The notes below the pieces were generated by a model. It was not told the DNA's origin and did not search any database. It saw only the letters and a list, made by a program, of their open reading frames with translations. A stretch of 64,000 nt of DNA from a virus. The stretch spans positions 1 through 64,000 of the IMG/VR virus record IMGVR_UViG_3300040801_003999, one strand, 5' to 3'. Below are positions 16,943 through 33,628 of the stretch, in pieces; positions within the stretch are counted from its first letter, which is position 1, and every line of letters starts with the position of its first letter. A program made the position numbers and the translations under genes.

Positions 16943-16954
16943 TTACCACTTCCG

Positions 16955-17971: not shown

Positions 17972-17997
17972 GCGTCATCTCCATTCTTGGTGGGTTA

Positions 17998-18135: not shown

Positions 18136-18635
18136 GATCTTTTTCGGAAATCTTTGACGATGCTTGACCAAACCTCGCGAGGCTCGCGATTATTCGCGAG
18201 GCATCTCAATAGAATTTCGAATTTGGTGCAAAGCCGGCCGTTTCTGCACCACCACTTTCTTCCATCGGGAAAAATGACGGCCGGACCATCCTCGCGATGG
18301 AGTCCGCCATTTCTGCACCACTTCTTTGTTCCATCGGGCTCAACGACGGCCGGTCCATCCTCGCGATGGAGTTGGCCGTTTTTGTGCCAATACTTTGTTC
18401 CATCAGGATGAACGATGGCCGGACCATCCTCGCGATGGACTCGGTCATTTCTGTACCAACTCTTTGTTCCATCGGAATAAATGATGGCCGGGCCATCCTC
18501 GCGATGGAGTTGACCGTTTCTGCGCCACTCCCTTGTTCCATCGGGATAAATGATGGCCGGACCATCCTCGCGATGGAGTTGGTCGTTTTTGTGCCAATAT
18601 TTTGTTCCATCATCGTTGATTATTAATTTACTCAT
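18132..18635 (-). CDS. MORN-repeat protein (6 units)
   Basis: MSKLIINDDGTKYWHKNDQLHREDGPAIIYPDGTREW... The usual tail stop TGA is changed to AGC, adding SIVKDFRKRS. ATGA overlap with the upstream gene. Confidence 0.8.
   Translation of the reverse strand: MSKLIINDDGTKYWHKNDQLHREDGPAIIYPDGTREWRRNGQLHREDGPAIIYSDGTKSWYRNDRVHREDGPAIVHPDGTKYWHKNGQLHREDGPAVVEPDGTKKWCRNGGLHREDGPAVIFPDGRKWWCRNGRLCTKFEILLRCLANNREPREVWSSIVKDFRKRS
18162..18226 (-). repeat. conserved 65-nt MORN-gene 3' module, copy c
   Basis: Same module as 140..204, with the terminal TCATGA replaced by GCTTGA. Confidence 0.85.
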
Positions 18636-18696
18636 GACCAAACCTCGCGAGGCTCGCGATTATTCGCGAGGCATCTCAATAGAATCTCGAATTTGG
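18632..18696 (-). repeat. conserved 65-nt MORN-gene 3' module, copy d
   Basis: Essentially identical to 140..204. Confidence 0.85.
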
Positions 18697-19312
18697 TGCA
18701 AAGCCGGCCGTTTCTGTACCAACACTCTGTTCCATCGGAATAAACGACGGCCGGACCATCCTCGCGATGGAGTCGGCCGTTTCTGTACCAACACTCTGTT
18801 CCATCGGGATGAGTGCTGGCCGGGCCATCCTCGCGATGGAATTGGCCGTTTCTGTACCACTTCTTTGTTCCATCAGGATGAACGATGGCCGGGCCATCCT
18901 CGCGATGGAATCGGCCGTTTCTGTACCAATATTTTGTTCCATCGGGATGAACGATGGCCGGGCCATCCTCGCGATGGAGTCGGCCGTTTCTGTACCAATA
19001 TTTTGTTCCATCGGGATGAACGATGGCCGGGCCATCCTCGCGATGGAGTCGGCCGTTTCTGAACCACTCCCTTGTTCCATCGGGCTTAACGATGGCCGGA
19101 CCATCCTCGCGATGGAGTTGGTCGTTTCTGTACCACCATTCTGCTCCATCGGGATCAACGACGGCCGGGCCATCCTCGCGATGGAATTGACCGTTTCTGA
19201 ACCACTTCTTTGTTCCATCGGAATAAATGATGGCCGGCCCATCCTCGCGATGGAGTTGACCGTTTCTGCGCCACTTCTTTGTTCCATCATCGCCGATTAT
19301 TGGCTTACTCAT
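18632..19312 (-). CDS. MORN-repeat protein (8-9 units)
   Basis: MSKPIIGDDGTKKWRRNGQLHREDGPAIIYSDGTKKWFRNGQFHREDGPA... in 69-nt units. Tail CTKFEILLRCLANNREPREVWS. Confidence 0.8.
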   Translation of the reverse strand: MSKPIIGDDGTKKWRRNGQLHREDGPAIIYSDGTKKWFRNGQFHREDGPAVVDPDGAEWWYRNDQLHREDGPAIVKPDGTREWFRNGRLHREDGPAIVHPDGTKYWYRNGRLHREDGPAIVHPDGTKYWYRNGRFHREDGPAIVHPDGTKKWYRNGQFHREDGPASTHPDGTECWYRNGRLHREDGPAVVYSDGTECWYRNGRLCTKFEILLRCLANNREPREVWS

Positions 19313-19467
19313 GATCAAGCCTCGCGAGGAGCAGGCATGGGAAACGTTAATGATAAAGCTCTCGATGAATCATCCACTCATCATCCATTTCTATAATTCT
19401 AAATGTATTTCAAAAACACGCGCCAGTCCAAGCATCAGACCAATTGAATAGAATATAGGAATTACAA

Positions 19468-19713
19468 TCAGCCGCCCCATCTTTCCTCCAATACTTGTCG
19501 TCGACGTTCGGCCTCAGCCCACCAACTCGACGAGTCTATATCAGGATGGGTGCGATTGTCAAATTGTTTTCCGGTTCGCACATAAAAAATGAACATCGTT
19601 AAGTCTTCACGGGCTTCGAATGGAATATTGTGACCGAAGACTGGCATTGGCCGTGTGCGCTCCAGAATCGCTGTCAGTTCCGAGACAGTGGCCGACTCAA
19701 TCCTACCAACCAT
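19468..19713 (-). CDS. hypothetical protein
   Basis: MVGRIESATVSELTAILERTRPMPVFGHNIPFEARED... The start overlaps the end of 19703..19903. Confidence 0.55.
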   Translation of the reverse strand: MVGRIESATVSELTAILERTRPMPVFGHNIPFEAREDLTMFIFYVRTGKQFDNRTHPDIDSSSWWAEAERRRQVLEERWGG

Positions 19714-19903
19714 CTTCGGGGGGAGCGACCACCCTGAAGCGTTCGGTGAGTTCTTCGACAGTCCCTGTTTCATCTTGCAGCCTCCCATCGTCGTGATGAA
19801 TCCGAATTGTGAAATTACCGCCGCCATTGTCTGTAATGGCTACAAGGCGGCCGGGCTTCGCCTGTGGCTTGTCTTTCTCTTGCACATAATTTCCTACTTT
19901 CAT
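19703..19903 (-). CDS. hypothetical protein
   Basis: GGAGTAAAG-ATG, MKVGNYVQEKDKPQAKPGRLVAITDNGGGNFTIRIHHDDG... Confidence 0.55.
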   Translation of the reverse strand: MKVGNYVQEKDKPQAKPGRLVAITDNGGGNFTIRIHHDDGRLQDETGTVEELTERFRVVAPPEDGW

Positions 19904-19905
19904 CT

Positions 19906-20124
19906 TTACTCCATTGAGAATGTGTGATAATTGGGTGAACGACAAATGCAGTCTGGGCCTTCTGTTGCGACAAAGACCATTTCGTTATTGTTGCATATCC
20001 TGATACACCTGTCAACAATCTTTTGGGAGGGAAGTGATGCATCCCATGCTAGAAAAAGCATCACGATGCCAGCGATTATCAAAAAAGCGAAAGAAATCTT
20101 GTTCGCTGTAGTCATCTCTTCCAT
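19906..20124 (-). CDS. small membrane protein with Cys cluster
   Basis: TM segment ISFAFLIIAGIVMLFLAW, then CIRIC...CIC. Confidence 0.5.
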   Translation of the reverse strand: MEEMTTANKISFAFLIIAGIVMLFLAWDASLPSQKIVDRCIRICNNNEMVFVATEGPDCICRSPNYHTFSME

Positions 20125-20272
20125 AACGTCGCCTCAATCTTTTGACTCGGTCAGGATATCTGATTCCAAACCATTTGTCAAATTCTTTTTTATCTTTCTG
20201 CGCGAGTGTCCGACGACGGTGTCGTCTATTTTTCTTGTCATCATAGAACAATTTATCGTATTTGTCAATCAT
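20012..20272 (-). CDS. hypothetical basic protein (overlaps 19906..20124 by 113 nt)
   Basis: 86-aa ORF, MIDKYDKLFYDDKKNRRHRRRTLAQKDKKEF... The 3' extent is doubtful because of the overlap. Confidence 0.4.
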   Translation of the reverse strand: MIDKYDKLFYDDKKNRRHRRRTLAQKDKKEFDKWFGIRYPDRVKRLRRRYGRDDYSEQDFFRFFDNRWHRDAFSSMGCITSLPKDC

Positions 20273-20388
20273 TATTTTTATTTCGCCATCCCTTGTGAGA
20301 GAGTGGTTTGATATCTAAACGCAGTTTGTTTTTGTTTAATCGCTGTAATTCTGTGGCAAGGCTGTGATAAAGATACGGCTGGTCGGAT

Positions 20389-20616
20389 TCAATTGTGCGC
20401 ATTTCGAGCCTCGTTAATTGCTTTCATTTCTTCTGCAAGCTCCTGTAAGCTAAGCTCGTAGAGTCTAATGAGTTCTTTGTTATAAACAGTAGTCGACCAA
20501 CCGTAATGCCTTATGGCGCTTTCTAGCCAACCTCTGACCCACTTAATAAATGGTCGAGTAATTGATCGAGTCGGAACCCGTTCATCGGGATACATAATAT
20601 CAGCGAGAATGTTCAT
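20389..20616 (-). CDS. hypothetical protein
   Basis: 75-aa co-oriented ORF just upstream of tRNA-Glu. Confidence 0.55.
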   Translation of the reverse strand: MNILADIMYPDERVPTRSITRPFIKWVRGWLESAIRHYGWSTTVYNKELIRLYELSLQELAEEMKAINEARNAHN

Positions 20617-20651
20617 TTCTTTTTTCTGAGTTCGAAATAGTGTTCATACAA

Positions 20652-20724
20652 TGCTCCCAGCGGGGCTCGAACCCGCATTTCTGACTTGAGAGGCCAGTGT
20701 CCTATCCATTTAGACGATGGGAGC
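20652..20724 (-). tRNA. tRNA-Glu (anticodon CUC)
   Basis: 73-nt cloverleaf: GCTCCCA/TGGGAGC acceptor, GTCT/GGAC, CTGGC-CTCTCAA-GTCAG, GCGGG-TTCGAGC-CCCGC. Confidence 0.8.
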
Positions 20725-20759
20725 ATATGGCCCGTGAGGTGGGCCAGACCCGGCAGATA

Positions 20760-21440
20760 TTATGCTCGAAGTTGAGCCTTGGCTGCAACGACGCGTTCGA
20801 AGATTTCGGCCTTCTTCCCGGTCGTGTCGATGCCAAGTTCCTTGGCAATCTGTCGGAGCTTGTTGTATGGCACATCATCCTGAGTGAATTCCGGCTCAGG
20901 AGTTGCCGGGGGCTGGTCCGATGCTGCCTGTCGGCCGGGCGGGCGTGTGTCGATGCCGAATTCGAGCATGCGATTGCGGACCGTGCCGGGCGAAACGTTA
21001 AGAGCTTCGGCCGTCTCGGCCAGCGTCAGGCCCTGCTCATGGTAAAGCTCAGTCAGCTGTTGCTCATCGAGTTCGACCAGCTTCGAGCCAGTAGAGCGGC
21101 CGGGCGAGCGGACATCAACGCCATGCTCCTCCATCCGTGCGCGCACAGTCGGCAGCGAAACGCCACACTTGTCGGCGACCTCTTGAAGCGTCAGACCCTG
21201 CTCGTGGTAAAGCTCAGTCAGTTTCTCTTTCGAGATAACAATCTTCTTGCGCCCACCAGCACCGCCGCGAGAACGAACGTCGATACCAAACTCGGCCATA
21301 CGCACACGAACCGTAGGGACTGAGACGCCGACTGCTTTCGCCGTTTGTGCCAGCGTCAAGCCCTGCTCGTGGTAAAGCTCAGTCAGCTTCTCAGCGGTGA
21401 TTTCGTTGACGATCGACTTGGTTTCGTTCTGCTCATTCAT
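20760..21440 (-). CDS. DNA-binding protein with three tandem HTH repeats and a SAP/Rho-N-like C-terminus
   Basis: Three copies of LTELYHEQGLTL.(Q/E)(T/V)A...(G/N)VS.(P/G)TVR.RM.E(F/H)G(I/V)D.R, then YNKLRQIAKELGIDTTGKKAEIFERVV. Confidence 0.7.
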   Translation of the reverse strand: MNEQNETKSIVNEITAEKLTELYHEQGLTLAQTAKAVGVSVPTVRVRMAEFGIDVRSRGGAGGRKKIVISKEKLTELYHEQGLTLQEVADKCGVSLPTVRARMEEHGVDVRSPGRSTGSKLVELDEQQLTELYHEQGLTLAETAEALNVSPGTVRNRMLEFGIDTRPPGRQAASDQPPATPEPEFTQDDVPYNKLRQIAKELGIDTTGKKAEIFERVVAAKAQLRA

Positions 21441-21506
21441 AATAACCTCTCGTTGGTTATCGTGGTTGTGAATATTGGGGGGATCATTCCCGCCCTGACA
21501 TCTTCT

Positions 21507-21534
21507 ATTATACTCACTGAAAACTTATCGTCAA
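21507..21534 (-). promoter_or_regulatory. sigma70-like promoter
   Basis: Minus strand TTGACG-16-TATAAT, A-tract. Confidence 0.6.
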
Positions 21535-21558
21535 GGACTTTTTTTCAGTTTTTTTGGG

Positions 21559-21945
21559 CTAGGCCATCGAAGCGACCAGCAGCACCAACAAAAGCAGTAT
21601 AGCGAAAGTAATAACAGCTGTCAACACCCGTTTTCCTTCTTTGAGGAATTTTCTTTCAGAATACTCCAGAATCTGTGAATCTTCTGACATTTCAGGAGGA
21701 TAGATGATGAATACCTCGCCGAGGCGGTATGAATTATGTTCGACCGTAAACCCCAGACCTTCCCACACGGGCTTCCAATCGGTTACCCATGCCTCAGCGA
21801 TGTCTTTTCGGATTTTCTTGAAGTACAAAACACCATAACCTTTTTTATTGATTTCCCAAGCAACAACATCATTTTCCTCACGAGCTTCCTCGTTTGGATA
21901 ATTTTCACGAATTCGCCTTGCTTGTTCGACACTAATCATTCTCAT
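21559..21945 (-). CDS. hypothetical protein with C-terminal TM segment
   Basis: 128 aa, C-terminus VLTAVITFAILLLLVLLVASMA. Confidence 0.6.
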   Translation of the reverse strand: MRMISVEQARRIRENYPNEEAREENDVVAWEINKKGYGVLYFKKIRKDIAEAWVTDWKPVWEGLGFTVEHNSYRLGEVFIIYPPEMSEDSQILEYSERKFLKEGKRVLTAVITFAILLLLVLLVASMA

Positions 21946-22426
21946 AGTATTCTACTCCTGCTCGCTTTGCGAGTTCTTGTTTGTAATAACGATAGCCGAA
22001 AACTTCCCAATCTACTGTCGGATGAAATTTCGAATGCATGAAGCTTTCTGGCAAGCCTGATGCGAATGTGCCATCGTAATGATCCAGACCAAATGAACAA
22101 TGAGCCAGTTCGTGATACACAACGGGCGTGATAAGATGCACCATATCATAAGCCGAATCTTCTCGAAAAATTTCAAAACGTTCAATCAATCCAGAATCAA
22201 TTCGAACAGTTTTGCCATCAACGCGACGCGAACACAGCCCGAGTCGCCCATCAAGATTATCAGACACCAAAACTGGGTAGTCTACGGCGTATCCATACTC
22301 TTGTTCGAATTGCGCCACCGCTGTATCCAAGCGATGATCGCTCCATCCATCCTCAGGAACACACCCAGACAATACAACAGAAATGAAAGCAATACAAGCA
22401 ATTTTTTTCATTTTCATTCTCCGCAC
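21932..22426 (-). CDS. putative lipoprotein zinc metallopeptidase
   Basis: MKKIACIAFISVVLSGC lipobox-like signal. HELAHC (HExxH) motif. Confidence 0.55.
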   Translation of the reverse strand: MRRMKMKKIACIAFISVVLSGCVPEDGWSDHRLDTAVAQFEQEYGYAVDYPVLVSDNLDGRLGLCSRRVDGKTVRIDSGLIERFEIFREDSAYDMVHLITPVVYHELAHCSFGLDHYDGTFASGLPESFMHSKFHPTVDWEVFGYRYYKQELAKRAGVEYYEND

Positions 22427-22446
22427 CGTGAATTGGTCACGGGAAC

Positions 22447-22474
22447 ATTATAGCATCCACGCAAAACAAGTCAA
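22447..22474 (-). promoter_or_regulatory. sigma70-like promoter (last of the dense series)
   Basis: Minus strand TTGACT-16-TATAAT, TGc. Confidence 0.6.
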
Positions 22475-22995
22475 GCAGAAATTGTATCTTTTTCTTGCAG
22501 GTCATGATTGATTGGTTCATACCAGTCTGGTGCCGGGCGTGCTTTGCGCCAGCGAGCGAAGCGGGACTTGTCTTGGTTGTAGAATTCTCGATAGGAATCG
22601 ACAACCGAATCTCGGCGATAGTGTTCGGGCATGGCCAATCGGTGTCTGGTCAGACCGACATCAGGAAGGTCAGGGATATTCTCGATGCCCCATCGAATAA
22701 CCTCTTCAGATTTAATGATTTTTCCGTACCTGAATGTGTACTCGGCGGACTGAGCCAGACCAAACTCGCACAGCCACAGATAGTTATCCAGAGATTCGAG
22801 CGCCCACAATGTACATGGGTGCTTTAGATGTGCTTTGTTAGCTTTATAGGGGATTAGGTCAGGCGGAAGCTGACCAAGGGAATGGTGTGCAAAACAAATG
22901 AGCTGAGCTGTCTCTGTAGGCATCTTGCAGGCATGCTGATCACAGGCATGCTGTGCAGAAGTGACAATATCTTCATCAAGTACAAAAATGTTCAT
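22471..22995 (-). CDS. hypothetical protein
   Basis: 174-aa ORF, MNIFVLDEDIVTSAQHACDQHACKMPTETAQLICFAHH... Looks like a conserved family but I cannot name it. Confidence 0.65.
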   Translation of the reverse strand: MNIFVLDEDIVTSAQHACDQHACKMPTETAQLICFAHHSLGQLPPDLIPYKANKAHLKHPCTLWALESLDNYLWLCEFGLAQSAEYTFRYGKIIKSEEVIRWGIENIPDLPDVGLTRHRLAMPEHYRRDSVVDSYREFYNQDKSRFARWRKARPAPDWYEPINHDLQEKDTISA

Positions 22996-23084
22996 ATCGA
23001 ACTCCGTGATAGTGTAGAGCGACCCCCCCTCCCTAGGTACTACCGGGGTACTTCTACTAGTCTACCACATCCGAAAACCATCGT

Positions 23085-23276
23085 CTAGTCTTTTCCGCTA
23101 ACATTCCCGGATAGAAGAACAGTGAGAAGATACCAAAATCCGATAATGTTGAAAGAAAAAATTATTAACAAATTTAAAAGATTGTCGCCAATGCCATATG
23201 AATGGAAGACCCCAAACATAATTGACACACAGAATGATCCAATCGACTTTGTTATTTTTTCAGTTGTTTTGTTCAT
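23085..23276 (-). CDS. small membrane protein (2 TM)
   Basis: 63 aa with hydrophobic segments SFCVSIMFGVF and LLIIFSFNIIGFWYLLTVLL. Confidence 0.55.
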   Translation of the reverse strand: MNKTTEKITKSIGSFCVSIMFGVFHSYGIGDNLLNLLIIFSFNIIGFWYLLTVLLSGNVSGKD

Positions 23277-23279
23277 AAT

Positions 23280-24095
23280 TTAAAAATAATGCCTAACCTT
23301 AGATTTGTCGATGATAAATTCAACCACATCTTCAGAAAATTCTGAATTCATAGCAGATATCCTCTCCTCTACCACAGAGACAGGCTTTTCGCCGAAACCT
23401 TCACAGTAGTGCCAGACTTTCAGAACATTTCCGTCTAAATCCCTCACTTTTTCATCCCCAACAAAATATTCCGCGAGGGTGTTTTTATGCATTTTAAAAG
23501 TCTTTGATTTTTTAGCTCGAACATTATAAAAAACACCGGAACCGGGCCTATCTACAATTTTCCACGAGAATAAATTATCGCGCACAATAATATTAATGCC
23601 AGCCTGTTCGCTATACGCATTCCCGTGTTTTTGATAGTATCTAGTATAGGGAAGCGACAGCCTGATAATCTCAGGAATTATATCCAAGTCGTTGAAACAG
23701 ATCACATCTGCGTTGCAGTGCTGATCAGCACTGTTTATAAACTCTCCGTTTTGAATAAGAGGATACGGATAATCTAAAGTAGCAAGCATTTGATGTTCAT
23801 CATCATCGAGGAACTCATCTAGGCGGCCGAGCGTAATTGTATCTGCTCCAAGAGAAATCAATTTATTGTACTTATTATTCCTAGAGTTATTTATTTCGTA
23901 TCCGATAGCATATTTCACAATCCCCGGCGAAAATTTGCGAAATTTTTTAAAAGAAGAGTAATCTGCGCGCGCCTCGTTTGTCACAAGAACCGTGTCGACA
24001 TCGGGATGCCAAGACCTAAATGATTCATAGGCGTTCTCACCCAGTTTCTCATAGCGAAGATCATCATAATAGATAACGCAGAGTGTCGACATCAC
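23280..24095 (-). CDS. GT-A fold glycosyltransferase-like protein (tentative)
   Basis: 271 aa. ISLGADTITLGRLDEFL resembles the (Y)LDADT.V.G.L.EL DxD region of GT8-type transferases. Confidence 0.45.
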   Translation of the reverse strand: MMSTLCVIYYDDLRYEKLGENAYESFRSWHPDVDTVLVTNEARADYSSFKKFRKFSPGIVKYAIGYEINNSRNNKYNKLISLGADTITLGRLDEFLDDDEHQMLATLDYPYPLIQNGEFINSADQHCNADVICFNDLDIIPEIIRLSLPYTRYYQKHGNAYSEQAGINIIVRDNLFSWKIVDRPGSGVFYNVRAKKSKTFKMHKNTLAEYFVGDEKVRDLDGNVLKVWHYCEGFGEKPVSVVEERISAMNSEFSEDVVEFIIDKSKVRHYF

Positions 24096-24584
24096 CTACC
24101 CTTTCAAGATTTGCTTTCCATTTCCAGAAAACTTTTCGAGAATGGCATTTCGATCTCCAACAACAATATAGGTCAGACCAGATTTTGTTGTCAAATTATA
24201 AAACCTAGCAACCTCAGAGAGGTTGTCTGGAAAGTTTTTGGATTCGTTGATGAAGCGAGTGTTCATATCCTCATTGACCTCAAGAGAGGCGAAGTCTGAT
24301 TTTGGAACATCAACCCGAATAAGTCGTTTGGTATTGCTCGGGTCAATCCTAAACAATTCTACAAATTCCATTTTTATTTCTCCTTGTCGCTCGATCATCA
24401 TTTGTTTAATGTACAAACACATGTCCAATGCTTCTTCGTAAGCATCCTGTAGTGCATCTCTGCCATTGAAGGGCAGGAGAGGCACTCCATATGATTCTAT
24501 CCCCTTCTCTCGACGCACGCGTAAATCTGCGATAACGCGCGACACCATATCATCAGAGACCGCCAAAACCACCTCCAGAGCCAC
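24096..24584 (-). CDS. hypothetical protein (MazG/dNTP-pyrophosphohydrolase-like N-terminal motif, tentative)
   Basis: 162 aa. REKGIESYGVPLLPFNGRDALQDAYEEALDMCLYIKQ pattern. Confidence 0.4.
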   Translation of the reverse strand: MALEVVLAVSDDMVSRVIADLRVRREKGIESYGVPLLPFNGRDALQDAYEEALDMCLYIKQMMIERQGEIKMEFVELFRIDPSNTKRLIRVDVPKSDFASLEVNEDMNTRFINESKNFPDNLSEVARFYNLTTKSGLTYIVVGDRNAILEKFSGNGKQILKG

Positions 24585-24915
24585 TAAAAATTTTGGTGAC
24601 CTCGTCCTTCAAATCTTTGTGAAAATCCGGATCTGCTAGCTTATCTCGAATTTCAATCCACATGGGGTTACTCATAATCTCATCGTAAAACATAACTTCT
24701 TCATATGTAAGCTTTTGAACATATGATTGTCCCACAGCTTGAACATAGGCGTCATGAAGCTTCTGGCTAATTGTCGGTGTCATAGCGAAAGTCCCGAGAA
24801 TTTCGCGTAGCTGAGCGACATAGTTATCCGCTTCCTGCTTAACAATTCGCGAAATCACTCGCAGCTTCTCACTTTCTTGTTCTTCAGTCATATTTTCTTG
24901 GCTATTTTCATCCAT
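24553..24915 (-). CDS. hypothetical protein
   Basis: 120-aa co-oriented ORF, overlaps its neighbours by a few codons. Confidence 0.6.
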   Translation of the reverse strand: MDENSQENMTEEQESEKLRVISRIVKQEADNYVAQLREILGTFAMTPTISQKLHDAYVQAVGQSYVQKLTYEEVMFYDEIMSNPMWIEIRDKLADPDFHKDLKDEVTKIFSGSGGGFGGL

Positions 24916-25519
24916 TTTCTTCTCCTTCCTCTTCAGGGAATTTAGCTACTAATTTTAATTTCTCTTTATCGATCATAACATCGCTCATGACATGACCGGC
25001 TCTTTGAGCTGTTTCGGACAACACTCTCTTGGTGATATGTTCTTCCGTTATTTCTTTCTTATCCAAGAAATACAAGGCAGACATCTTAACCGGAGTTCTG
25101 TATACTTCGCCCTTGATAGATGTCAAAGGATCGTATTTATGATCTATCTCAACAACAGTTTTGGGTTTAGACTTATCATAGAGATATTTCATGATAAAAT
25201 AGTGCGGCTTGTCTCCATTCTGGATTGCCTTGTACATATTCTTGTATGCGGCCGATGTTAACTTGAACTTCTTCTTTGTTCTTGGTTTAATATCTAAGTC
25301 CTTGCCGTACATGGCCTTGACTTGGTATCGTTCCTTGCAACAGCTGCACTCTAAATCATAAACAGCCTCATCGAACTCGGCCATTTCTAATGAGCCGCCG
25401 CACTCCACACAATCTACATTCTCCTCAACCCATTTTTCCGCTGCATACTTTCCAATAACATGTTTTCTTTTTAATACGAACGGTGGCACAGAGCCTAATG
25501 GTAAATAGAAATCAATCAC
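24908..25519 (-). CDS. DpnI-like PD-(D/E)xK nuclease (tentative)
   Basis: CVECGGSLEMAEFDEAVYDLECSCCKERYQVKA: a Cys4 cluster wrapped around a D...E.K motif, as in the DpnI catalytic domain. Confidence 0.45.
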   Translation of the reverse strand: MIDFYLPLGSVPPFVLKRKHVIGKYAAEKWVEENVDCVECGGSLEMAEFDEAVYDLECSCCKERYQVKAMYGKDLDIKPRTKKKFKLTSAAYKNMYKAIQNGDKPHYFIMKYLYDKSKPKTVVEIDHKYDPLTSIKGEVYRTPVKMSALYFLDKKEITEEHITKRVLSETAQRAGHVMSDVMIDKEKLKLVAKFPEEEGEENG

Positions 25520-25538
25520 CTTTCTCTCCTGAGTTTAA

Positions 25539-25560
25539 TTGTCTAAGATCATTTAGACAA
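25539..25560. promoter_or_regulatory. palindromic operator-like site
   Basis: TTGTCTAA-gatcat-TTAGACAA (8-6-8). Abuts the -10 of promoter 25560..25588. GATC at its centre. Confidence 0.5.
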
Positions 25561-25588
25561 CTATATCACAAGAGAAAGGTGATTTCAA
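25560..25588 (-). promoter_or_regulatory. sigma70-like promoter
   Basis: Minus strand TTGAAA-17-TATAGT, TGa. Confidence 0.5.
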
Positions 25589-25597
25589 GCTTTTTAT

Positions 25598-25804
25598 TTA
25601 ACTTTCTTGATCAGCAATCATTTCCATAGCCGCGAGCGCGAAGCTCAATTCCTCGGCGCTCATCTCTTGAGTGTCCGCAGCAGAGACCAGCACGTCCCTG
25701 ACCATATCTGAAATCTCTTCCAGACTGTAGTCAATAGGCTCAGTGTCAGCCTCTAGAGATGCCGCCTTAAACGGGAGATTATCTTTGTTGTATGAGTACA
25801 TCAT
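25598..25804 (-). CDS. small highly acidic protein
   Basis: 68 aa rich in D/E: EADTEPIDYSLEEISDMVRDVLVSAADTQEMSAEELSF. Confidence 0.55.
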   Translation of the reverse strand: MMYSYNKDNLPFKAASLEADTEPIDYSLEEISDMVRDVLVSAADTQEMSAEELSFALAAMEMIADQES

Positions 25805-26235
25805 CGCGCCTCCAAGTTATACATGCCGTTAATAAGCTTAGCCACACTCTTCTTCTTGCCGGACCTACGCAAGTCTGCAACAACCCTTGAAACAGTATTG
25901 TCAACATAGTATTTGAAACTATCATACAAATCAAGGCAGGACAGTTCAGACATGCATCGCCGACAATCAACTGAAATGAATCTATTGAGGTCTGTGGCTG
26001 TTGAGTCAGTGTATGCCAGTGCAATAATGTGGTCAAAAAGCTCTTTTTCCTCATCTTTATTCGAAGAAAAAATGATGAAATCGTCAATGACCATCGGAAC
26101 ATCAGCCTCGACTGATTCGTGGAGAGAAAAGAGACGATACCCCTTCTTTTTTAATTGCTCTCGAATGAACACAGTATTATCAAACATATTAGTCTCCAAT
26201 TGAAACGACGTAATCACCACTCTGCGAAAAACCAA
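25801..26235 (-). CDS. hypothetical protein
   Basis: 144-aa co-oriented ORF. Confidence 0.6.
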   Translation of the reverse strand: MVFRRVVITSFQLETNMFDNTVFIREQLKKKGYRLFSLHESVEADVPMVIDDFIIFSSNKDEEKELFDHIIALAYTDSTATDLNRFISVDCRRCMSELSCLDLYDSFKYYVDNTVSRVVADLRRSGKKKSVAKLINGMYNLEAR

Positions 26236-27451
26236 AGCGGTCCATATCAGTCAAGCCACGTTTGTCGGTACACCACATCAGCTGCACTCGCGATGAGTCT
26301 GGGCGAGGTGCCATCATATCAGTCAAAATAATGTGACCATCGAAGCGTTGACGATCAACAAATTCCACGGGCGCTTCAAAATTAGTGCCGCCACAAGATA
26401 CTCGCTCAGGCTCAATTCTTTGACCCTTTTTCCAGACAAAAACTTTGTCTTCGCGAACTTTACTGTCAAACGGAATAACCGTGAACTCTACATGCTTTGC
26501 AAGCCCAGACAATTCTGCAAAAAATTTGGCCAAAAGCTCATCGTCGACTGACCCAGACTGGTCGATGCTTACCGCAATCTTGGCGACATGGTCTGCTGTA
26601 ATGCCTGCGTACTTGTATGGTGCGCGTCGAGAAATCTTCTTGATAGAGCTTCGACGTTCGCCTCGAACAGAGCGCTGAATAAATCTTCGGAGCGTGGTCC
26701 GCCAATTAATTTTTGGCGTAAAGATCTCCTTGATTTTCCTCTTCGTTTCCGAGGAGATGGAGCCCCATTCAGTAGAGCGCGCGCACTTGTTGTAGGATTC
26801 CCTCAACATCTTCTTGAGCAACTGATCAGCGTAGGATGCATCGCGCGGATCATTGGCCCAATCATGGAAATCAACAAGTCTGCCAGTCGCGCCTGCCTGA
26901 ATCTTTTTGACAAGATCTTTATCCTTCATGATCAAGTGCCAATAGTGCTCCGAAGCCTCTCCGATAGGATAGTCCTTAAACGGACCGGGCGTGCCGGGAA
27001 TCAAAAACTTTGCAGCCTCTTTATCTTCATCTTCGACGCTTTCATCGTAAAGTGAATGAAACACAATGTTCTGTGGAATTTCACTTGCCAGTTTCGAATT
27101 GATGGCGAGGTCGGTAGCGTAATTTGCCACTGCTTGCAAGGAAGCATCGGAACCGGCCAGATTTCGATTTGTCAAATGGCCAAGAATCAAGTGATAGAAT
27201 TCATGCTTGAGCACACCAACAACGTATTTCGGGTCATTTTCATCCAATTCGGCGAAGAAGTATGGATTCCAAATCAACTCAAAACAGGAAGACGTCGGAG
27301 TATATCGGACACAAGCGGTCTTGATATACTCCATCTCTTTCTCACTCGTCGGCCGCTTAGCCACAAAGCTCGAAAACTCCGTGAAAAACGGCTCATCCTT
27401 GAGCGTGCGCTGCAAAAGGTCCTCGAACCTGCGGCGTGACATCTTATTCAT
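26189..27451 (-). CDS. VWA-domain protein with N-terminal HExxH metallopeptidase-like domain
   Basis: LKHEFYHLILGH (HExxH). MIDAS-like VSIDQSGSVDDE. Start uncertain (several ATGs between 27442 and 27463). Confidence 0.7.
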   Translation of the reverse strand: MNKMSRRRFEDLLQRTLKDEPFFTEFSSFVAKRPTSEKEMEYIKTACVRYTPTSSCFELIWNPYFFAELDENDPKYVVGVLKHEFYHLILGHLTNRNLAGSDASLQAVANYATDLAINSKLASEIPQNIVFHSLYDESVEDEDKEAAKFLIPGTPGPFKDYPIGEASEHYWHLIMKDKDLVKKIQAGATGRLVDFHDWANDPRDASYADQLLKKMLRESYNKCARSTEWGSISSETKRKIKEIFTPKINWRTTLRRFIQRSVRGERRSSIKKISRRAPYKYAGITADHVAKIAVSIDQSGSVDDELLAKFFAELSGLAKHVEFTVIPFDSKVREDKVFVWKKGQRIEPERVSCGGTNFEAPVEFVDRQRFDGHIILTDMMAPRPDSSRVQLMWCTDKRGLTDMDRFGFSQSGDYVVSIGD

Positions 27452-28676
27452 CGTCATTGTCATCTTTTTCCTCCTCCTTGAGAGGATCTTCGATTCCAGA
27501 ATCAATAATTCGTTTAGCCATCATGACCATGTAATCTTCGTCAGCTTCCTTCGGGAGAAGTTCGTTGAGGGCCTCTCGAAGCTTGACGAAGTTGTCGTAC
27601 GAGCCATGCAGTCCACTTTCGTCATCCACGTCGATGTGACGCGCCCAGAAATGAGCTTGAATCTCCATGTCGAGAGCATCAACGAATGTCGCAAGATTTT
27701 TAAAGCACTCCTTGGAGTGATTGCTATCCTTCAGAGCGCCCGACTTGTAGAGCCTCATAACCAAACTTCGCTGATGGGGGACAGTCAAGTTGCTGATGTC
27801 TTCAGCCTTGAAGTTGCCCTCAAGAATATCAGAGGCTCCAAGCTGCTGTTCGAGATTAATCATGTATTCTCGAAATTGCAGCGCCACATCATTCCCGACA
27901 AATCCAGTCAAGAGATTAAACGCTTGATTGGCATTGCTCTTATCGCGAAGATTTAGGCCGGACCCCCGAACAACATCCGAGAAACGCTTCCAAGACCGTC
28001 GAGATGGATACACTTGGTCAGGCTGAAATTGTCCTTCGTGCTCCAGCGCACCCAACGACTTTTGAATGAAGTCGACGATAATTGGTTCAACATTGGGCTG
28101 TTCACCTTCAATGAAGCCTTTCTTTTTGTCGTATGACAAGAAGACTTTCCGCTTGGCCCATCGAATCCAATCGTCGAGCGTCGGCTCAACATCCCAGACA
28201 ACCCATCGATCAAGCTCAGCAGGGTCCATGTCAGCAACATTATAGTCGACACCAGTATTGACTGCGCCGATAATACGAGTGCTTTCATGAAGAGACTTGC
28301 CGGCGAGACCATGAGAATCAGTAAGTTGCATCAGGGCCTGTTTGACCTGCGTCGAAGCTCGATTTAGCTCGTCGAGGACCAAAAGACATGGCGATTCCTG
28401 ACACTTCCTAAACCAACTCGGCGGCTTAAACACAGTCACGTCATCTTCGAGAAAGGGCAGGCCCAACAAATCGCCCTCGTTCATCTGAGATGCCCGAAGC
28501 TCAACGACTTTGAGGTCGGGAACATCAAGGCCCATGAATGCGCCCAGACCCTGAGCGATTTCATAAGCACTCTCGGACTTACCGATACCGTGCCGTCCGC
28601 GAATAAGGACGGGATACCCTTCCACCAGAACCGGCTTGGCAATAGAAACAAAAGTTTGAAGATCGATAGATGCCAT
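27444..28676 (-). CDS. MoxR-like AAA+ ATPase
   Basis: Walker A GRHGIGKSE, Walker B LLVLDELNRA. Immediately upstream of the VWA partner. Confidence 0.75.
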   Translation of the reverse strand: MASIDLQTFVSIAKPVLVEGYPVLIRGRHGIGKSESAYEIAQGLGAFMGLDVPDLKVVELRASQMNEGDLLGLPFLEDDVTVFKPPSWFRKCQESPCLLVLDELNRASTQVKQALMQLTDSHGLAGKSLHESTRIIGAVNTGVDYNVADMDPAELDRWVVWDVEPTLDDWIRWAKRKVFLSYDKKKGFIEGEQPNVEPIIVDFIQKSLGALEHEGQFQPDQVYPSRRSWKRFSDVVRGSGLNLRDKSNANQAFNLLTGFVGNDVALQFREYMINLEQQLGASDILEGNFKAEDISNLTVPHQRSLVMRLYKSGALKDSNHSKECFKNLATFVDALDMEIQAHFWARHIDVDDESGLHGSYDNFVKLREALNELLPKEADEDYMVMMAKRIIDSGIEDPLKEEEKDDNDDE

Positions 28677-28697
28677 AATGCCACTCTCCTTGTTGTC

Positions 28698-28928
28698 TTA
28701 GCGACGTGCTTTCAGAAAAAGATTCAAATCACTCGATTTGTATTCAACTTCCTCACCAGTATTATACATGTAACAGGTGACGATGTCAAGCTTCCTGTTG
28801 ATTTTTGTGACATACCCGATGTCACCTTCGTGGTTCATGCCATTTCGCGAAATTGCGATGACTCGGTCGAAATTATTAATCCAGCTCAGTTTAGCCAATT
28901 TCCCTCTCCTATGAAAGATATTGATCAA
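28698..28928 (-). CDS. hypothetical protein
   Basis: 76-aa co-oriented ORF. Confidence 0.55.
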   Translation of the reverse strand: MINIFHRRGKLAKLSWINNFDRVIAISRNGMNHEGDIGYVTKINRKLDIVTCYMYNTGEEVEYKSSDLNLFLKARR

Positions 28929-29635: not shown

Positions 29636-29924
29636 CGTCGGCCTCCAGCGCCTTGCGGCAGGCGTGGTGAAAATGAAGCTGGTTGTAGTCGACAGCTCGC
29701 CTGTCCCTCGCAGCCCATTCGACCACCTCCCTAGGCAGGATGACGGAGACGTGGCCCTCGGGCGGGGTCAGCTCCGCGACGACCCGCTCCAGCCGCTGGC
29801 GCTCCGCCTTTTCGTCGTCCCAGTGTTTGCGGTTGGTGGCGAGCCACTTCTCGGCCTCTTCGGCGCGCTCTCGCTGTTTCATCGCCTCGGCGTGCCAGTT
29901 TTGAATTTTCGTTTCGTCGCTCAT
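29628..29924 (-). CDS. hypothetical protein (GC-rich island)
   Basis: MSDETKIQNWHAEAMKQRERAEEAEKWLATNRKHWDDEKAERQRLE... The start abuts the RNA ligase stop. Confidence 0.55.
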   Translation of the reverse strand: MSDETKIQNWHAEAMKQRERAEEAEKWLATNRKHWDDEKAERQRLERVVAELTPPEGHVSVILPREVVEWAARDRRAVDYNQLHFHHACRKALEADDE

Positions 29925-32299
29925 TATGAAATGTCCTCCAAATCGACATATTCATCGCTGTTCTTGGCGATACCTTCCAGTTCACAAAACCAGAAGCCCT
30001 TGTATTTGTGTGTGCCGCCCATCAAATGATGGTCGACCGTGATACAAACACCCTCGCGAATATGTGTGCTGTCCAGTTTCGACGATCCCTGCGAATACTG
30101 CTCAACAAGTTCGAGGAGCGAGTCTTCATCCCCGTCATAGACCAGTGTATCATAGTGAGGGACATGGCGCAAGCCTAATTCGTTACATCGAGCCATAACC
30201 TTTGGCCAACTAAGATCGACAGAATCGCCATCTTCATTTGTTTGTGTAATTCTGTACACATAAATATCGTATGGCACAGCTTGGCCGCGATCTGTTCCAT
30301 ATTTATAGACCATTTCATCGCCATATTTTTTCTTTAACTGTTTGTCCGTCACTTTGTGTGGGGCCATGATTGGTGTCTTCTTGTCAGTGAAACCAACAAT
30401 CTCGTAATAGAGCGTCTCTCCTTTCTTCAAACGTAGGCGATCATGGATTTCAAATCGAAATCCCATACCAGAATAGTAACCTTGATCGACCGACTGATCA
30501 GGATCATAGGTTACTCGTCGAGAACCAGAGACTTTTCGCCATTCTCTCTTCGGCTTAAAAACTTCTTTACGGAAGAAGTTGTTGATTGCTCGTTTGATTG
30601 CTGGGAGGTCGTCTTCTACTTGGACGTATCCCGTCCTACCGGAATTGTGTACTAGAATTCCATCAGCGAAAAAATTACTCGTTTCTGTTGTTAGATCATA
30701 TTTTGTCGGTCCTACGTAGGCCTCCGATGCCCTTTTTCGATGAACCGATAGAACCTCTTGAGTCATGGTAATAGGTCTCATAGAATGGACTTCAGAAACA
30801 TTCCAAGTCGAGGCCGCTCGATATCTTTCAGGTAACTTATACTTCATATGGTCACACACATATGGAGCAATAAGAACGAAAAAACGATCTGCGTCATCTG
30901 CGTTCAATCTAATACGAGAATACCCGTTGTTGTCTTCGTAATAAACAGACTCAATCCCGAATTTTCGAAAGCCCTCCTGAAGAACTTTACAATCCTCCTC
31001 AGAAAAATTACACAAAGCGAAATTTGCTCGGTCTTCCTGACTCTCGTGTGTCGCAAGTGAACCATCATCCATGTACAAAAATGCCATAGAAATCGGACCC
31101 AACTCTTTGGCAACCCACGGCGGGATAATCTTTTTAGAATCTTCCGGATAAAAATCCGAAAATCTGTTAAAAATATGATAAGACGAAAGCGTACTCCGAG
31201 CAATCATTGTAGTGCCATAGCCGCTAGTTCTTTCATTTCGCGTTGATGATGAAAGGTCCCCTAGGCATTTTGCAGTATAGTCAACATATTTTTCATCCTT
31301 TTTTCTGTGAGCATATTGAATCGAGGCGGAATCATAATCATAGCGATGCAGATACCCATCACCCAGCAATTTTCCAAGCATCACCTGCTCTTGGTAATAA
31401 GTCGGTCCTCGATCAAATTTTTCGACAAGAACTTTAGTGCCGGGTTTGAGATTCTGCGCTTCAGAATATTCATTTATCTCAGGACACCAGACTAAATGTT
31501 CTGGTGTTGTGTAGATAGACCCAAAATGGCTTCCGGACAAGCCCTTTCGAGAAAATTTGATCTTAACCCAATCCCCTTCATTTTGACCATGATTCCATGT
31601 CTTGGTCACTTGTGAAGGTTGAAGAGTGAAACTTTCTATATCATAACCAAGAACATAATCTCCCTCCTTAACTTGTGTAATTCTTTTCTTAGATCCGTCC
31701 ATCATCGTGATCATGGAGTTCGATGATAAACACGTTCCATGTAATTTCTCCGTAATATGCAACACAGCCCCTTTAGGGATTGCTGATGCAGTATAGCGGA
31801 GCTTCGGGGTGTCGAAGTGCTTCTTAAACATTGGAATTTCTTTTTTCTTTTTCTTTTGTCCCTGCTTTTGGGCTCGCTCCATTGCTCGCTTGGTTGCCTC
31901 GGAGACATACTTGCGACACACTTCTTTGCCGTTCAGGGCATCGAACTCATCGCCCGCCTCCAGTGTCGACAGATCGACACCAGTCCATCTCAGATACGTC
32001 AGAGGAACCCAAAAGCCTTCTGACTTCTGTCCTCGGAATGGTTGCGCCCGAACTCGACGATTCTCTTCGAAGTATCCGCCCATAGACTCGCCAGTCTTCG
32101 GGTCTTTGCGATATAGGTTATTGGCCATGCACATTTCATGCGACAGCTGGCCGTCGCACGGAAAATACACTCCAAGCTGGCCTGATTCAGTCTCTAAGCC
32201 AACAACGACCTGATAGCCTGATGCAACACCAAGCTGAACCCGGTCCGCATTTGGGTGAGGTCGTGTAGAAATGTGACATACTTTTGCTTTATAGCTCAT
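29924..32299 (-). CDS. ATP-dependent RNA ligase (N-terminal OB/tRNA-binding-like domain plus nucleotidyltransferase), interrupted by an intein
   Basis: Motif I ITEKLHGT followed by C...HN|S. The extein is about 428 aa. The N-terminus (HPNADRVQLGVASGYQVVVG...) resembles the OB domain of DRB0094/Rnl5-type ligases. Confidence 0.65.
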   Translation of the reverse strand: MSYKAKVCHISTRPHPNADRVQLGVASGYQVVVGLETESGQLGVYFPCDGQLSHEMCMANNLYRKDPKTGESMGGYFEENRRVRAQPFRGQKSEGFWVPLTYLRWTGVDLSTLEAGDEFDALNGKEVCRKYVSEATKRAMERAQKQGQKKKKKEIPMFKKHFDTPKLRYTASAIPKGAVLHITEKLHGTCLSSNSMITMMDGSKKRITQVKEGDYVLGYDIESFTLQPSQVTKTWNHGQNEGDWVKIKFSRKGLSGSHFGSIYTTPEHLVWCPEINEYSEAQNLKPGTKVLVEKFDRGPTYYQEQVMLGKLLGDGYLHRYDYDSASIQYAHRKKDEKYVDYTAKCLGDLSSSTRNERTSGYGTTMIARSTLSSYHIFNRFSDFYPEDSKKIIPPWVAKELGPISMAFLYMDDGSLATHESQEDRANFALCNFSEEDCKVLQEGFRKFGIESVYYEDNNGYSRIRLNADDADRFFVLIAPYVCDHMKYKLPERYRAASTWNVSEVHSMRPITMTQEVLSVHRKRASEAYVGPTKYDLTTETSNFFADGILVHNSGRTGYVQVEDDLPAIKRAINNFFRKEVFKPKREWRKVSGSRRVTYDPDQSVDQGYYSGMGFRFEIHDRLRLKKGETLYYEIVGFTDKKTPIMAPHKVTDKQLKKKYGDEMVYKYGTDRGQAVPYDIYVYRITQTNEDGDSVDLSWPKVMARCNELGLRHVPHYDTLVYDGDEDSLLELVEQYSQGSSKLDSTHIREGVCITVDHHLMGGTHKYKGFWFCELEGIAKNSDEYVDLEDIS
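30644..31732 (-). mobile_element. intein with LAGLIDADG homing endonuclease (aa 190-552 of the ligase ORF)
   Basis: Starts CLSSNSMITMMDG and ends GILVHN, with +1 Ser. Motifs LGKLLGDGYL and AFLYMDDGSL. Inserted directly after the KxHG lysine motif. Confidence 0.75.
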
Positions 32300-32308
32300 T
32301 TTATCCTC

Positions 32309-32337
32309 CAGCTCATCCCCGCGTATGCGGGGAACAA
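32309..32337 (-). repeat. solitary CRISPR type I-E-like repeat unit
   Basis: Minus strand TTGTTCCCCGCATACGCGGGGATGAGCTG, compared with the E. coli I-E repeat GAGTTCCCCGCGCCAGCGGGGATAAACCG. Single copy, 9 nt upstream of the ligase ATG. Confidence 0.5.
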
Positions 32338-32453
32338 GGTCGTTGTGCTCGCCTTTTCAGACACGTCTTAGAGATTGGTCGAAAACAAACTAAAGACAAC
32401 AAAAAAACAAATCTTAATAAATTTTTTCATTTTTCTCCAATGTTATAACTCAC

Positions 32454-32714
32454 TTATTTCTTTCCTTTCGCTTCGACAGAGAACTCTTCGAGAGGTGGTT
32501 TGGCTGCATCAACATCAGCACTGACCTGCTCCGCATCAGATTCGTCCTGATAGGTGTCGTGTGTACCGGCGGCACCAACGACGCCGACGACGCCGGCGGC
32601 ACCTGTGGCTGCTCCACACATAACACACATTCCCGTTGGCAAAATAATACCAACAAGAAATAGTGCTGCCAAAATTCCGATAGTAACCTTAAAACCTTTA
32701 GCTGTGTCTGACAC
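32454..32714 (-). CDS. small membrane protein
   Basis: 86 aa. TM segments ILAALFLVGIILP and GAATGAAGVVGVVGAAG. GTG start after AAAGGA. Confidence 0.55.
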   Translation of the reverse strand: MSDTAKGFKVTIGILAALFLVGIILPTGMCVMCGAATGAAGVVGVVGAAGTHDTYQDESDAEQVSADVDAAKPPLEEFSVEAKGKK

Positions 32715-32815
32715 TTTTGATCCTTTTTCTAAGCGTTAAAATTATTTGTGACATGCTTTTGCTTTCGTTGTTTAAGTACCCTCGGTGGGATTCGAACCCA
32801 CACTGAACGGATTTT

Positions 32816-33505
32816 CGTCACACTACAGTTTTCACTGCCAACTTTCGCTGTTTGTGCGCTGGACTTTCTCTTCACCTTACCTGTTGGCTTAGGTGCGATC
32901 CGTAAAGTCTCTACACTTGCCCGATAACTATTCGTTATCTGCTAGCTCGGGATTGCCATCACCATTACGCGTTAAGGTTTCCCCGACTTGGGATCGTCCA
33001 CTTATAGGGTTTCCCTTATAAGGCTCATCTTTAATAGTCATATACGATTTTTTAATTTTACTTACAGAAAGGCGCTTCATTCGTTCATTTTGGACTTCTG
33101 CGCCGTATTTACCAGCGCATGTCCTAGAACAAAAAGGGCCAGCCTTTCCTTGTTTGCGATTCCCGGCCGCTTTATACAACTTCGAACCTTTAAGTTCAAA
33201 GCTGTCTGAACACAGCGGACACTCAAATCTTTGGGTTTTTAATCTTTTAACGTCCAAGGAGACGTGCTCTTTTCTAGAAAGAACTTGAAGATTCGCAAAA
33301 TCATTATTTGTAAAATCGCCGTCAATATGATCAACTGTTTCATCATCTTCAAGATACCTGCCAAGTTCGCACTCAACAAGGTATTTCGGGTAAGAAACGG
33401 TTTTTCTACTCTTGTCAGGATAGACGATTATCACATGCTTTCGCCCGTCCTGTCTTTCGTAGGGACCATATATCTTGCACTTATCGTAAATTTCTACCTC
33501 TGTTA
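32816..33505 (-). mobile_element. group I-like intron in the anticodon loop
   Basis: 690 nt. Follows U34 and ends in G before A35. Several GAAA-capped hairpins (CTACGAAAGAC, GGGCGAAAGC, CAGCGAAAGTTG). Carries an HNH ORF. Confidence 0.55.
32928..33434 (-). CDS. HNH homing endonuclease (intron-encoded)
   Basis: VDHIDGDFTNNDFANLQVLSRKEH HNH motif. C-terminal CPLC...CSRTC zinc cluster. GTG start. Confidence 0.8.
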   Translation of the reverse strand: MIIVYPDKSRKTVSYPKYLVECELGRYLEDDETVDHIDGDFTNNDFANLQVLSRKEHVSLDVKRLKTQRFECPLCSDSFELKGSKLYKAAGNRKQGKAGPFCSRTCAGKYGAEVQNERMKRLSVSKIKKSYMTIKDEPYKGNPISGRSQVGETLTRNGDGNPELADNE

Positions 33506-33628
33506 AAGTCCGCTGCCTCTGCCAGTTGGGCTACGAGGGCATACCTTTTTACTTACAGTGATGCGGGATTATTTACCATATCGACCGCCTCGTCCAGATG
33601 AACAACCCCATCAGATTTAATAGATTTC

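Follow-up and report, generated by a model that had tools for sequence, protein, structure and literature searches.

A probable solitary type I-E CRISPR repeat and possible RNA anti-CRISPR in the leader of a phage RNA ligase gene

Introduction

Single CRISPR repeats occur in viruses as solitary repeat units (SRUs). Viral SRUs have been catalogued with SRUFinder, and earlier by reference 4 of PMC10651486; 2,103 of them are on record (PMC10651486). About 90% of the viruses and prophages that carry SRUs infect hosts with CRISPR-Cas systems, and 83% of those SRUs are of the host's subtype (PMC10651486). Among the SRUs studied as RNA anti-CRISPRs (Racrs), RacrIF1 is bound and cut by Cas6f and gives an aberrant Cas6f-Cas7f complex without Cas5f and Cas8f, and RacrIE1 and RacrIE2 restored plaquing about 10^4-fold in a type I-E strain (PMC10651486). 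Racr candidates had been selected on the basis of a nearby promoter (within 250 bp), and all type I-E candidates assayed in that survey were active (PMC10651486). The SRU class is already described and partly characterized, two type I-E examples being proven Racrs. Here we analyze a stretch of 64,000 nt from the virus record IMGVR_UViG_3300040801_003999 (positions 1 to 64,000; this whole stretch is called the window), in which a single type I-E-like CRISPR repeat stands in the leader of an RNA ligase gene.

The closest described counterparts of the window repeat are RacrIE1 and RacrIE2 (Camara-Wilpert et al., Nature 2023, PMC10651486), which are likewise solitary type I-E repeats on mobile elements. 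GTGTTCCCCGCGTGTGC is the start of the RacrIE1 primer (PMC10651486), which puts RacrIE1 and the window repeat into one repeat family; all three repeats have an intact stem-loop, are intergenic and lack cas genes. RacrIE1 and RacrIE2 were assayed from PBAD, and RacrIF1 is a small RNA made from its own promoter (PMC10651486). By contrast, the window repeat has no recognizable promoter and is part of an mRNA leader with a ribosome-binding site (RBS) at its end. With the members of the SRU catalogue it shares a match to a known repeat family, an intergenic and viral location, and the absence of a flanking second or partial repeat. The portion of the catalogue available to us lists viral type I-E SRUs with the GATGAGCC handle, and the exact window repeat is not among the SRUs in that portion (PMC10651486). 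Unlike the catalogued SRUs, the window repeat belongs to a phage lineage that was not found in IMG/VR.

The same repeat also occurs in virus-borne mini-arrays, namely in the viral contigs L249 (four repeats) and L250 (two repeats); L-numbers denote DNA stretches fetched from relatives, genomes, metagenomes and viral contigs. Mini-arrays have spacers and at least two repeats, whereas the window has one repeat and no spacer. In CRISPR RNA (crRNA)-like regulators and CreTA/CreR modules, a degenerate repeat is followed by a pseudo-spacer and a repeat. These too are CRISPR repeat sequences outside arrays, but they need two repeat-like units around a guide, beside host cas genes, and neither is found in the window. 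PeSL cassettes of T4-type phages are multi-copy elements, each with an early promoter. Like the insert described here, they are short non-coding stem-loop cassettes, sometimes with a tiny open reading frame (ORF), in a variable region of a large lytic phage; the window insert differs in being single in the window and in having no promoter match. What is new in the window is the undescribed phage lineage, the placement in an mRNA leader abutting the RBS, and the presence or absence of the repeat among near-identical strains.

Results

Identity of the repeat

The element, TTGTTCCCCGCATACGCGGGGATGAGCTG, occupies positions 32309..32337 of the minus strand. The first-pass annotation of the window had called it a solitary type I-E-like repeat, and this is borne out, as 24 contiguous nucleotides, loop included, are those of repeats that stand beside type I-E cas operons. 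Metagenomes were scanned with this 24-mer, TGTTCCCCGCATACGCGGGGATGA, which corresponds to window positions 32336..32313, ATAC loop included. At least 120 metagenome stretches contain it, and 87 of the 120 matches listed have two or more copies, i.e., an array. Exact identity over the 24 nt thus extends to the repeats of more than 80 metagenome arrays, with 61-nt spacing. Array repeats with the ATAC loop take the form GTGTTCCCCGC-ATAC-GCGGGGATGA; among the matches listed, the commonest full array repeats are GTGTTCCCCGCATACGCGGGGATGATCCC (25 of 29 positions identical to the window repeat) and GTGTTCCCCGCATACGCGGGGATGAACCG (26 of 29). The closest array repeat among the matches listed (ending in GATGAACCG) shows three differences, all of them at position 1 or past the predicted cut, while positions 2-21, that is, 20 nt including the hairpin that Cas6e would keep, are unchanged. 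Overall, the window 29-mer is identical to real repeats at 26-27 of its 29 positions.

Two of these arrays, in L129 and L148, lie directly downstream of genes for Cse1, Cas7e, Cas5e, Cas6e, Cas1e and Cas3, and all of these proteins score above the NCBIfam cut-offs for type I-E equivalogs. The L129 and L148 repeats match the window repeat at 24 of 24 contiguous positions and at 26 of 29 overall; they read GTGTTCC... on the cas strand, the same orientation as on the coding strand of the window. The 24-nt match takes in the loop and three unpaired bases on each side of the stem, and simple arithmetic gives about 5e-10 occurrences of a specified 24-mer per 128 kb. On these sequence comparisons, chance resemblance to a CRISPR repeat can be dismissed.

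Species-representative genomes were also scanned, with the pattern GTTCCCCGC-N4-GCGGGGATGAGC. In many taxa this pattern is the core of true arrays with 61-nt spacing. A Falsiroseomonas array holds 84 copies of GTGTTCCCCGCATGCGCGGGGATGAGCCG and a Latescibacterota array 51 copies of its repeat, both 26/29 identical to the window repeat; further arrays with the pattern occur in Paracoccus, Rothia, Corynebacterium and Anaeromyxobacter. The high-identity type I-E repeat families that the first-pass annotation had asked about therefore exist. The window handle, AUGAGCUG, is one mismatch away from the AUGAGCCG of real arrays, and because ATGAGC handles are present in real 61-nt-spaced arrays of many taxa, this is a natural handle variant. 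The window repeat also has the G+C-rich stem of 6-7 bp, the 4-nt loop and the 8-nt handle starting with AU that mark the family, and Rfam gave no match to it. The factual statements of the first-pass annotation all hold but for one small correction: the differences from the E. coli repeat had been placed only in the loop and part of the 3' handle, but the first two bases differ as well, and identity to the E. coli repeat quoted there is 20/29, counted by hand.

The genome-scan pattern also matches non-CRISPR inverted hairpin pairs in Alphaproteobacteria, so a pattern match alone is no proof of CRISPR origin. The decisive evidence is the 24-mer with its TGTT and ATGA flanks, together with the link to cas operons. 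We conclude that the element is very probably a CRISPR-derived solitary repeat of the type I-E family, as judged from its sequence.

Three other kinds of locus came to light in these scans. In L007, L019, L023, L036 and about 30 other alphaproteobacterial loci, a single copy of TGGTTCCCCGC-N4-GCGGGGATGAGCGG has an inverted partner (CCGCTCATCCCCGC...GCGGGGATCCA) 50-80 nt upstream; these pairs resemble a REP- or MITE-like element of Caulobacterales and Hyphomicrobiales, with arms like type I-E repeats. In L004 and L092 (metagenome-assembled genomes, MAGs, of Desulfuromonadaceae) and in L086 (Oryzibacter), a degenerate repeat (e.g., GTTCCCTTTCAAAGGGATGAACCG) is followed after 26-32 nt by one good type I-E repeat, with no further array. 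These loci are possible examples of crRNA-like regulators and CreTA/CreR modules, or may be array remnants. Finally, truly solitary ATAC-loop repeats occur in the metagenome contigs L156/L179/L184/L199/L225 (one element), L183/L189, L174/L201/L231, L163, L207, L214 and L133. One family of them (TTGTTCCCCGCATACGCGGGGATGAACCA, 43-46% G+C) lies between genes for an AlpA-type-domain protein and an ArsR-type helix-turn-helix protein, with an RNase E/G gene a few kb away. In L183 and L189, a TATAAT box 8 nt upstream and the repeat itself are common to both, and the downstream sequences differ.

Solitary state

The repeat occurs once in 64 kb, as the first-pass annotation had stated: the 29-mer is unique in the window at up to three mismatches, and its core, CCCCGC-N4-GCGGGG, is unique at up to one mismatch, with 0.03 occurrences expected. 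Nor is there a second repeat or a spacer next to it. In 200 nt on each side and on both strands, the best local alignment score is 7, compared with a mean of 7.1 for shuffled sequence, and a degenerate second repeat was rejected on this ground. A CRISPR array or mini-array, with at least two repeats around a spacer of about 32 nt, is thus not what the window holds. We also compared the window with 5,787 ORFs of at least 100 aa that flank the fetched arrays, including cas genes (among them the confirmed type I-E operons of L129 and L148), and found no homologue at E<=1e-4; a positive control worked. With no second repeat, spacer or cas homologue, the element is very probably an SRU in a virus.

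SRUFinder accepts repeats with at least 90% identity, at least 90% coverage and at least 41.1 bits to a known repeat (PMC10651486). The best local match of the window repeat to a known repeat is 26 nt long, at 100% identity and 52 bits, which amounts to 89.7% of the 29-nt repeat and is borderline for 90% coverage. Global identity reaches 27/29 (93%), to a single variant copy in the array of L164 and to a solitary copy in L043. The window repeat is intergenic (it lies in the spacer 32453..32300 between two ORFs), has no full or partial repeat within 100 bp and has no link to cas genes, which the SRUFinder definition also asks for.

Position and fold in the ligase leader

In the window, the 29-mer is followed by GAGGATAAA (32308..32300) and then by the ATG of the ligase gene at 32299. 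Direct reading agrees with the earlier statements that the repeat is in the sense orientation, 9 nt before this ATG, and that its 3' handle runs into the RBS. The final base of the 29-mer doubles as the opening G of the Shine-Dalgarno sequence GGAGG (32305..32309, minus strand), which lies 5 nt before the ATG.

RNA folding gives a stem-loop at 32316..32333 (minus strand) with a 7-bp stem, UCCCCGC/GCGGGGA, made of one U-A and six G-C pairs, and a 4-nt loop, AUAC. The fold of the 29-mer has an energy of -14.3 kcal/mol, and real type I-E repeats have the same hairpin shape at -14.4 to -15.1 kcal/mol. Perfect G+C-rich hairpins with a stem of at least 6 bp occur at only 8 places in the 64 kb. No T-run follows the hairpin, as had been noted from the start; TGAGCTGGAGG follows instead, and a terminator scan does not report the hairpin. 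Thus, it is not an intrinsic terminator or attenuator.

The motif ATGAGCT occurs twice on the minus strand, 17 nt apart, once at the start of the handle (32316..32310) and once at the start of the ligase gene (32299..32293). Given this duplication, the last bases of the apparent handle may derive partly from the junction; however, ATGAGCCG handles are found in real arrays. The ATG of the handle opens a six-codon frame, MSWRIK, whose TGA overlaps the ligase ATG.

Hairpins before start codons are also seen elsewhere in the window. A repeat of about 95 nt, present four times (137-436, 6058-6620, 8527-8882 and 18159-19329), ends in the adjacent G+C hairpins CTCGCGAATAATCGCGAG and CCTCGCGAGG, which stand directly before ATGAGTA... 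starts; the ORFs behind them consist of 69-nt (23-aa) tandem repeats.

Presence and absence in close relatives

A search with the spliced ligase sequence returned two close relatives, L001 and L002. The samples in which these occur are ERR15116648 and SRR24908268. The closest is L001, whose ligase exteins are 96% identical. In the window, the spacer between an 86-aa gene and the ligase gene measures 154 nt (32300..32453, minus strand), and the alignment with L001 shows that about 150 of these 154 nt are missing there: the homologue of the 86-aa gene ends in an ATGA that overlaps the ligase start, leaving zero spacer. L002, with exteins 92% identical, has a different, 205-aa gene upstream and a 95-nt spacer without a G+C-rich hairpin. 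Distant ligase relatives (54-58% identity) have leaders of 11-18 nt, or a tRNA gene ahead of the ligase gene; in L246 (ligase 55% identical), a tRNA gene with a CAT anticodon (9890-9975) lies in the 111-nt spacer before the ligase gene, with no hairpin. No fetched DNA of a relative holds a CCCCGC-type hairpin anywhere, which makes the repeat a strain-specific trait and not a conserved feature of the ligase leader. The first-pass annotation had proposed a look for a generic hairpin that drifts freely in related phages; these have no hairpin at all.

A search of IMG/VR with a unique 23-mer of the spacer gave no match, and no motif of the spacer recurs in other intergenic regions or in the rest of the window. 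The spacer holds a possible mini-ORF of 20 codons, MKKFIKICFFVVFSLFSTNL*, behind GGAGAAAAATG (32368..32430, minus strand), a candidate gene only. It would encode a hydrophobic, Phe-rich peptide from its own GGAG; the segment that holds it occurs once in the window and has no counterpart in IMG/VR. A match to the Rfam leu/phe leader over the mini-ORF, at 26 bits against a gathering score of 70, was treated as chance, and the reading of the Phe-rich mini-ORF as part of an attenuator was rejected because there is no terminator. The 86-aa gene upstream of the spacer (32454..32714, minus strand) encodes a protein with an N-terminal hydrophobic segment and an acidic tail, which matched no family searched.

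A possible decoy for Cas6e

Cas6e cleaves at the 3' base of the repeat stem and leaves an 8-nt 5' handle. The sense orientation in the ligase leader implies that the repeat would be transcribed within a longer minus-strand mRNA. By analogy with the published type I-E Racrs, if the host has a type I-E system that fits the repeat, Cas6e would bind the UCCCCGC-AUAC-GCGGGGA hairpin, cut after G 32317 (between 32317 and 32316) and remain on the upstream fragment. As this fragment would lack the 5' handle, assembly of Cas6e and Cas7e on it would be non-functional, and Cas proteins would thereby be diverted from real crRNAs. As a side effect, the cut would free a ligase mRNA whose 17-nt leader, 5'-OH-AUGAGCUGGAGGAUAAA, still contains the Shine-Dalgarno sequence. 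On this analysis, a Cas6e-binding decoy, i.e., an RNA anti-CRISPR, is the reading that we tentatively put first, as a possibility and not as a conclusion; for it, we infer transcription, Cas6e binding and cleavage, an anti-CRISPR effect and a type I-E host.

The promoters of the phage bear on the first of these. The window contains 17 consensus sigma-70 promoters (TTGAC-N17-19-TAWAAT; 0.37 expected), all on the minus strand, of which sixteen lie at 2406..28789 and the other at 62697..62724; 11 are inside a repeated intergenic cassette of 61-76 nt. The promoter-dense region of 2.4-28.8 kb looks like the early region of the phage. For the repeat itself, read-through transcription is likely.

A compatible type I-E host is plausible. 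Consensus sigma-70 promoters and a GGAGG RBS would fit hosts of phyla in which type I-E is common. Some arrays of the ATAC-loop repeat lie in DNA of 46-53% G+C, near the 40-50% of the phage. The Cas1e protein of the L148 array has its named relatives in Smithella, Syntrophus and Nitrospirota MAGs, which describes one carrier of the repeat and not the host of the phage.

Several observations weigh against a decoy. The scan of the spacer found no sigma-70-type promoter. At 307 nt upstream of the repeat, inside a coding region, ends the closest site that resembles one (10 of 12 matches), and no consensus promoter lies within 30 kb upstream. The repeat is probably not expressed early, as it sits in a block of replication and nucleotide-metabolism genes and outside the promoter-dense region. 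On a translated polycistronic mRNA, ribosome traffic could hinder the assembly of Cas7 on the fragment. Racrs often, though not of necessity, stand next to acr or aca genes; no such gene is recognizable among the neighbouring ORFs, none of which matches a Pfam or PHROG family with an anti-CRISPR annotation. Comparison of the window with the spacers from about 200 array stretches that were fetched gave nothing beyond 15-21-mers expected by chance, and neither the ligase relatives nor the GMP-reductase relatives indicate a host. Only one of the three close strains carries the repeat, so there is no conservation to argue for selection. Lastly, an intact sequence would be equally expected after a recent neutral capture.

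Alternative explanations

Such a capture is the strongest rival and, in our assessment, nearly as likely as the decoy. The repeat would then be a neutral scar from a host or viral array, or what is left of a viral mini-array after decay, brought in by illegitimate recombination. Its occurrence inside an indel in one of three close strains fits this origin, as do the variable gene content of the slot between the tRNA-Leu and ligase genes, two other strain-specific selfish insertions in the same 3.6 kb, and the lack of a promoter and of acr neighbours. The viral mini-arrays of the same repeat in L249 and L250 could decay to single units, and the ATGAGCT at the 3' end of the repeat and at the ligase start hints at a microhomology junction. 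However, similarity between the left and right junctions, of the kind left by a target-site duplication, is not above chance (415 of 1000 shuffles). The sense orientation, the intergenic site and the intact Cas6e-binding part fit a working decoy, each of them weakly when taken alone, and in the SRU survey most viral SRUs match the CRISPR subtype of the host and all assayed type I-E candidates were active (PMC10651486). The location in a high-turnover region, which follows from the varying content of the slot, fits an accessory counter-defence element and a neutral capture alike.

It is much less probable that Cas6e processes the ligase mRNA to control it, with a cut 17 nt before the ATG that splits the ligase message off from the upstream transcript and a 5'-OH end that alter stability or translation. 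The amount of ligase made would then vary with the presence of an active type I-E system in the host. The placement is unusually tight, with the repeat ending in the Shine-Dalgarno sequence 9 nt before the ATG. When a 70-nt context is folded, GGAGG can pair with a CCUU that directly precedes the repeat, and the insert gives the ligase gene a stronger Shine-Dalgarno sequence than that of L001. Against this, the predicted accessibility of the Shine-Dalgarno sequence depends on the folding length and shows no clear rise once the cut is modelled; a stable structure that hides it and is opened by Cas6e was therefore rejected as not robust. Relatives manage ligase expression without any hairpin, with a leader of 0-18 nt or a tRNA in front, and other solitary metagenome copies of the repeat do not stand before start codons. 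We know of no precedent for such processing.

A related idea, which we rate marginally lower still, is control of a sensor type, instead of or besides the decoy, in which the Cas6e cut would, in cells with an active type I-E system, uncouple the mRNA of the RNA-repair ligase from its operon and change its output. The host's CRISPR nuclease would thereby regulate a gene of the phage. Cleavage by Cas6e leaves a 2',3'-cyclic phosphate and a 5'-OH, ends of the RNA-repair type, so that its combination with a gene for an RNA ligase is suggestive.

A recombination or integration module, with the repeat as homology or as a Cas1-Cas2 substrate for exchange with host arrays, is very improbable. The idea has been raised in literature cited by PMC10651486, and L183 and L189 share their left flank and the repeat while their right flanks differ, so solitary repeats can mark synteny breaks. 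However, 29 nt is very short for homologous recombination, nothing at the locus resembles the leaders of the fetched arrays, and no integrase was recognized in the window, in a survey for integrases that was incomplete.

Just as improbable is a generic leader hairpin (an mRNA stabilizer, an RNase site or an attenuator of the Phe-rich mini-ORF) that merely resembles a CRISPR repeat: the G+C-rich hairpins directly before starts in the four-copy 95-nt cassette and the weak Rfam leu/phe leader match speak for it, but the 24-nt match puts chance far below 1e-5 even with thousands of known repeats, there is no T-run, and the Rfam score stays far under the gathering score.

The RNA ligase gene and its surroundings

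The RNA ligase gene (29924..32299, minus strand) has 791 codons and contains an intein; it was recognized by PF09414 and the PHA02142 OB fold. The intein, of the LAGLIDADG type and 363 aa long (31732..30644, minus strand; placed by Pfam families and extein boundaries), follows the nucleotidyl-transferase motif KLHGT. Alignment with the intein-free P0001 and the mini-intein P0002 (loci L001 243-1529 and L002 786-2585) reveals three stages at one ligase site, namely the full 363 aa in the window, a 171-aa mini-intein in L002, from which the endonuclease domain is cleanly missing, and none in L001.

On the other side of the repeat, a tRNA-Leu(UAA) gene (33540..32776, minus strand) is split in its anticodon loop by a group I intron, and was missed by scans of the raw window; the joined exons form a 75-nt tRNA-Leu (ARAGORN). 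The intron, of about 690 nt (33505..32816), matches Rfam Intron_gpI at 42 bits and E 3e-9, just under the gathering score, and contains an ORF for an HNH endonuclease (33434..32928). L002 has an uninterrupted 3' part of tRNA-Leu. The same 3.6 kb thus holds the repeat and two other strain-specific mobile elements, the intron and the intein, and the gene content of the slot from tRNA-Leu to the ligase gene is different in all three strains.

The phage

Nearly all genes of the window are on the minus strand. They include genes for a DnaE-type polymerase, DnaB, a UvsX-like recombinase, ribonucleotide reductase, GroEL, a GMP-reductase-like enzyme, an amidase endolysin and several HNH endonucleases, as well as three tRNAs. 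Comparison with GenBank phages gave no close DNA match, and protein identity of only 27-40%. Searches of IMG/VR with the 86-aa upstream gene, the exact repeat and the spacer found no relative, and the assembly index has no record of the window's own proteins. We conclude that this is a large phage of an undescribed and unclassified lineage; it is presumably lytic.

Discussion

Activity of the repeat would widen the range of RNA anti-CRISPRs in two respects: they would occur in a large, presumably lytic and unclassified phage lineage, and in a layout not described so far, with the decoy inside an mRNA leader instead of in a small RNA made from its own promoter. If it is inert, it documents a route by which CRISPR repeats come into phage genomes, here through a slot that has gathered an intron and an intein as well. 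The three near-identical strains, one with the repeat, one with no spacer and one with another gene in the slot, offer a natural comparison for the value of the repeat to the phage. Active or inert, the repeat points to a type I-E host for this phage.

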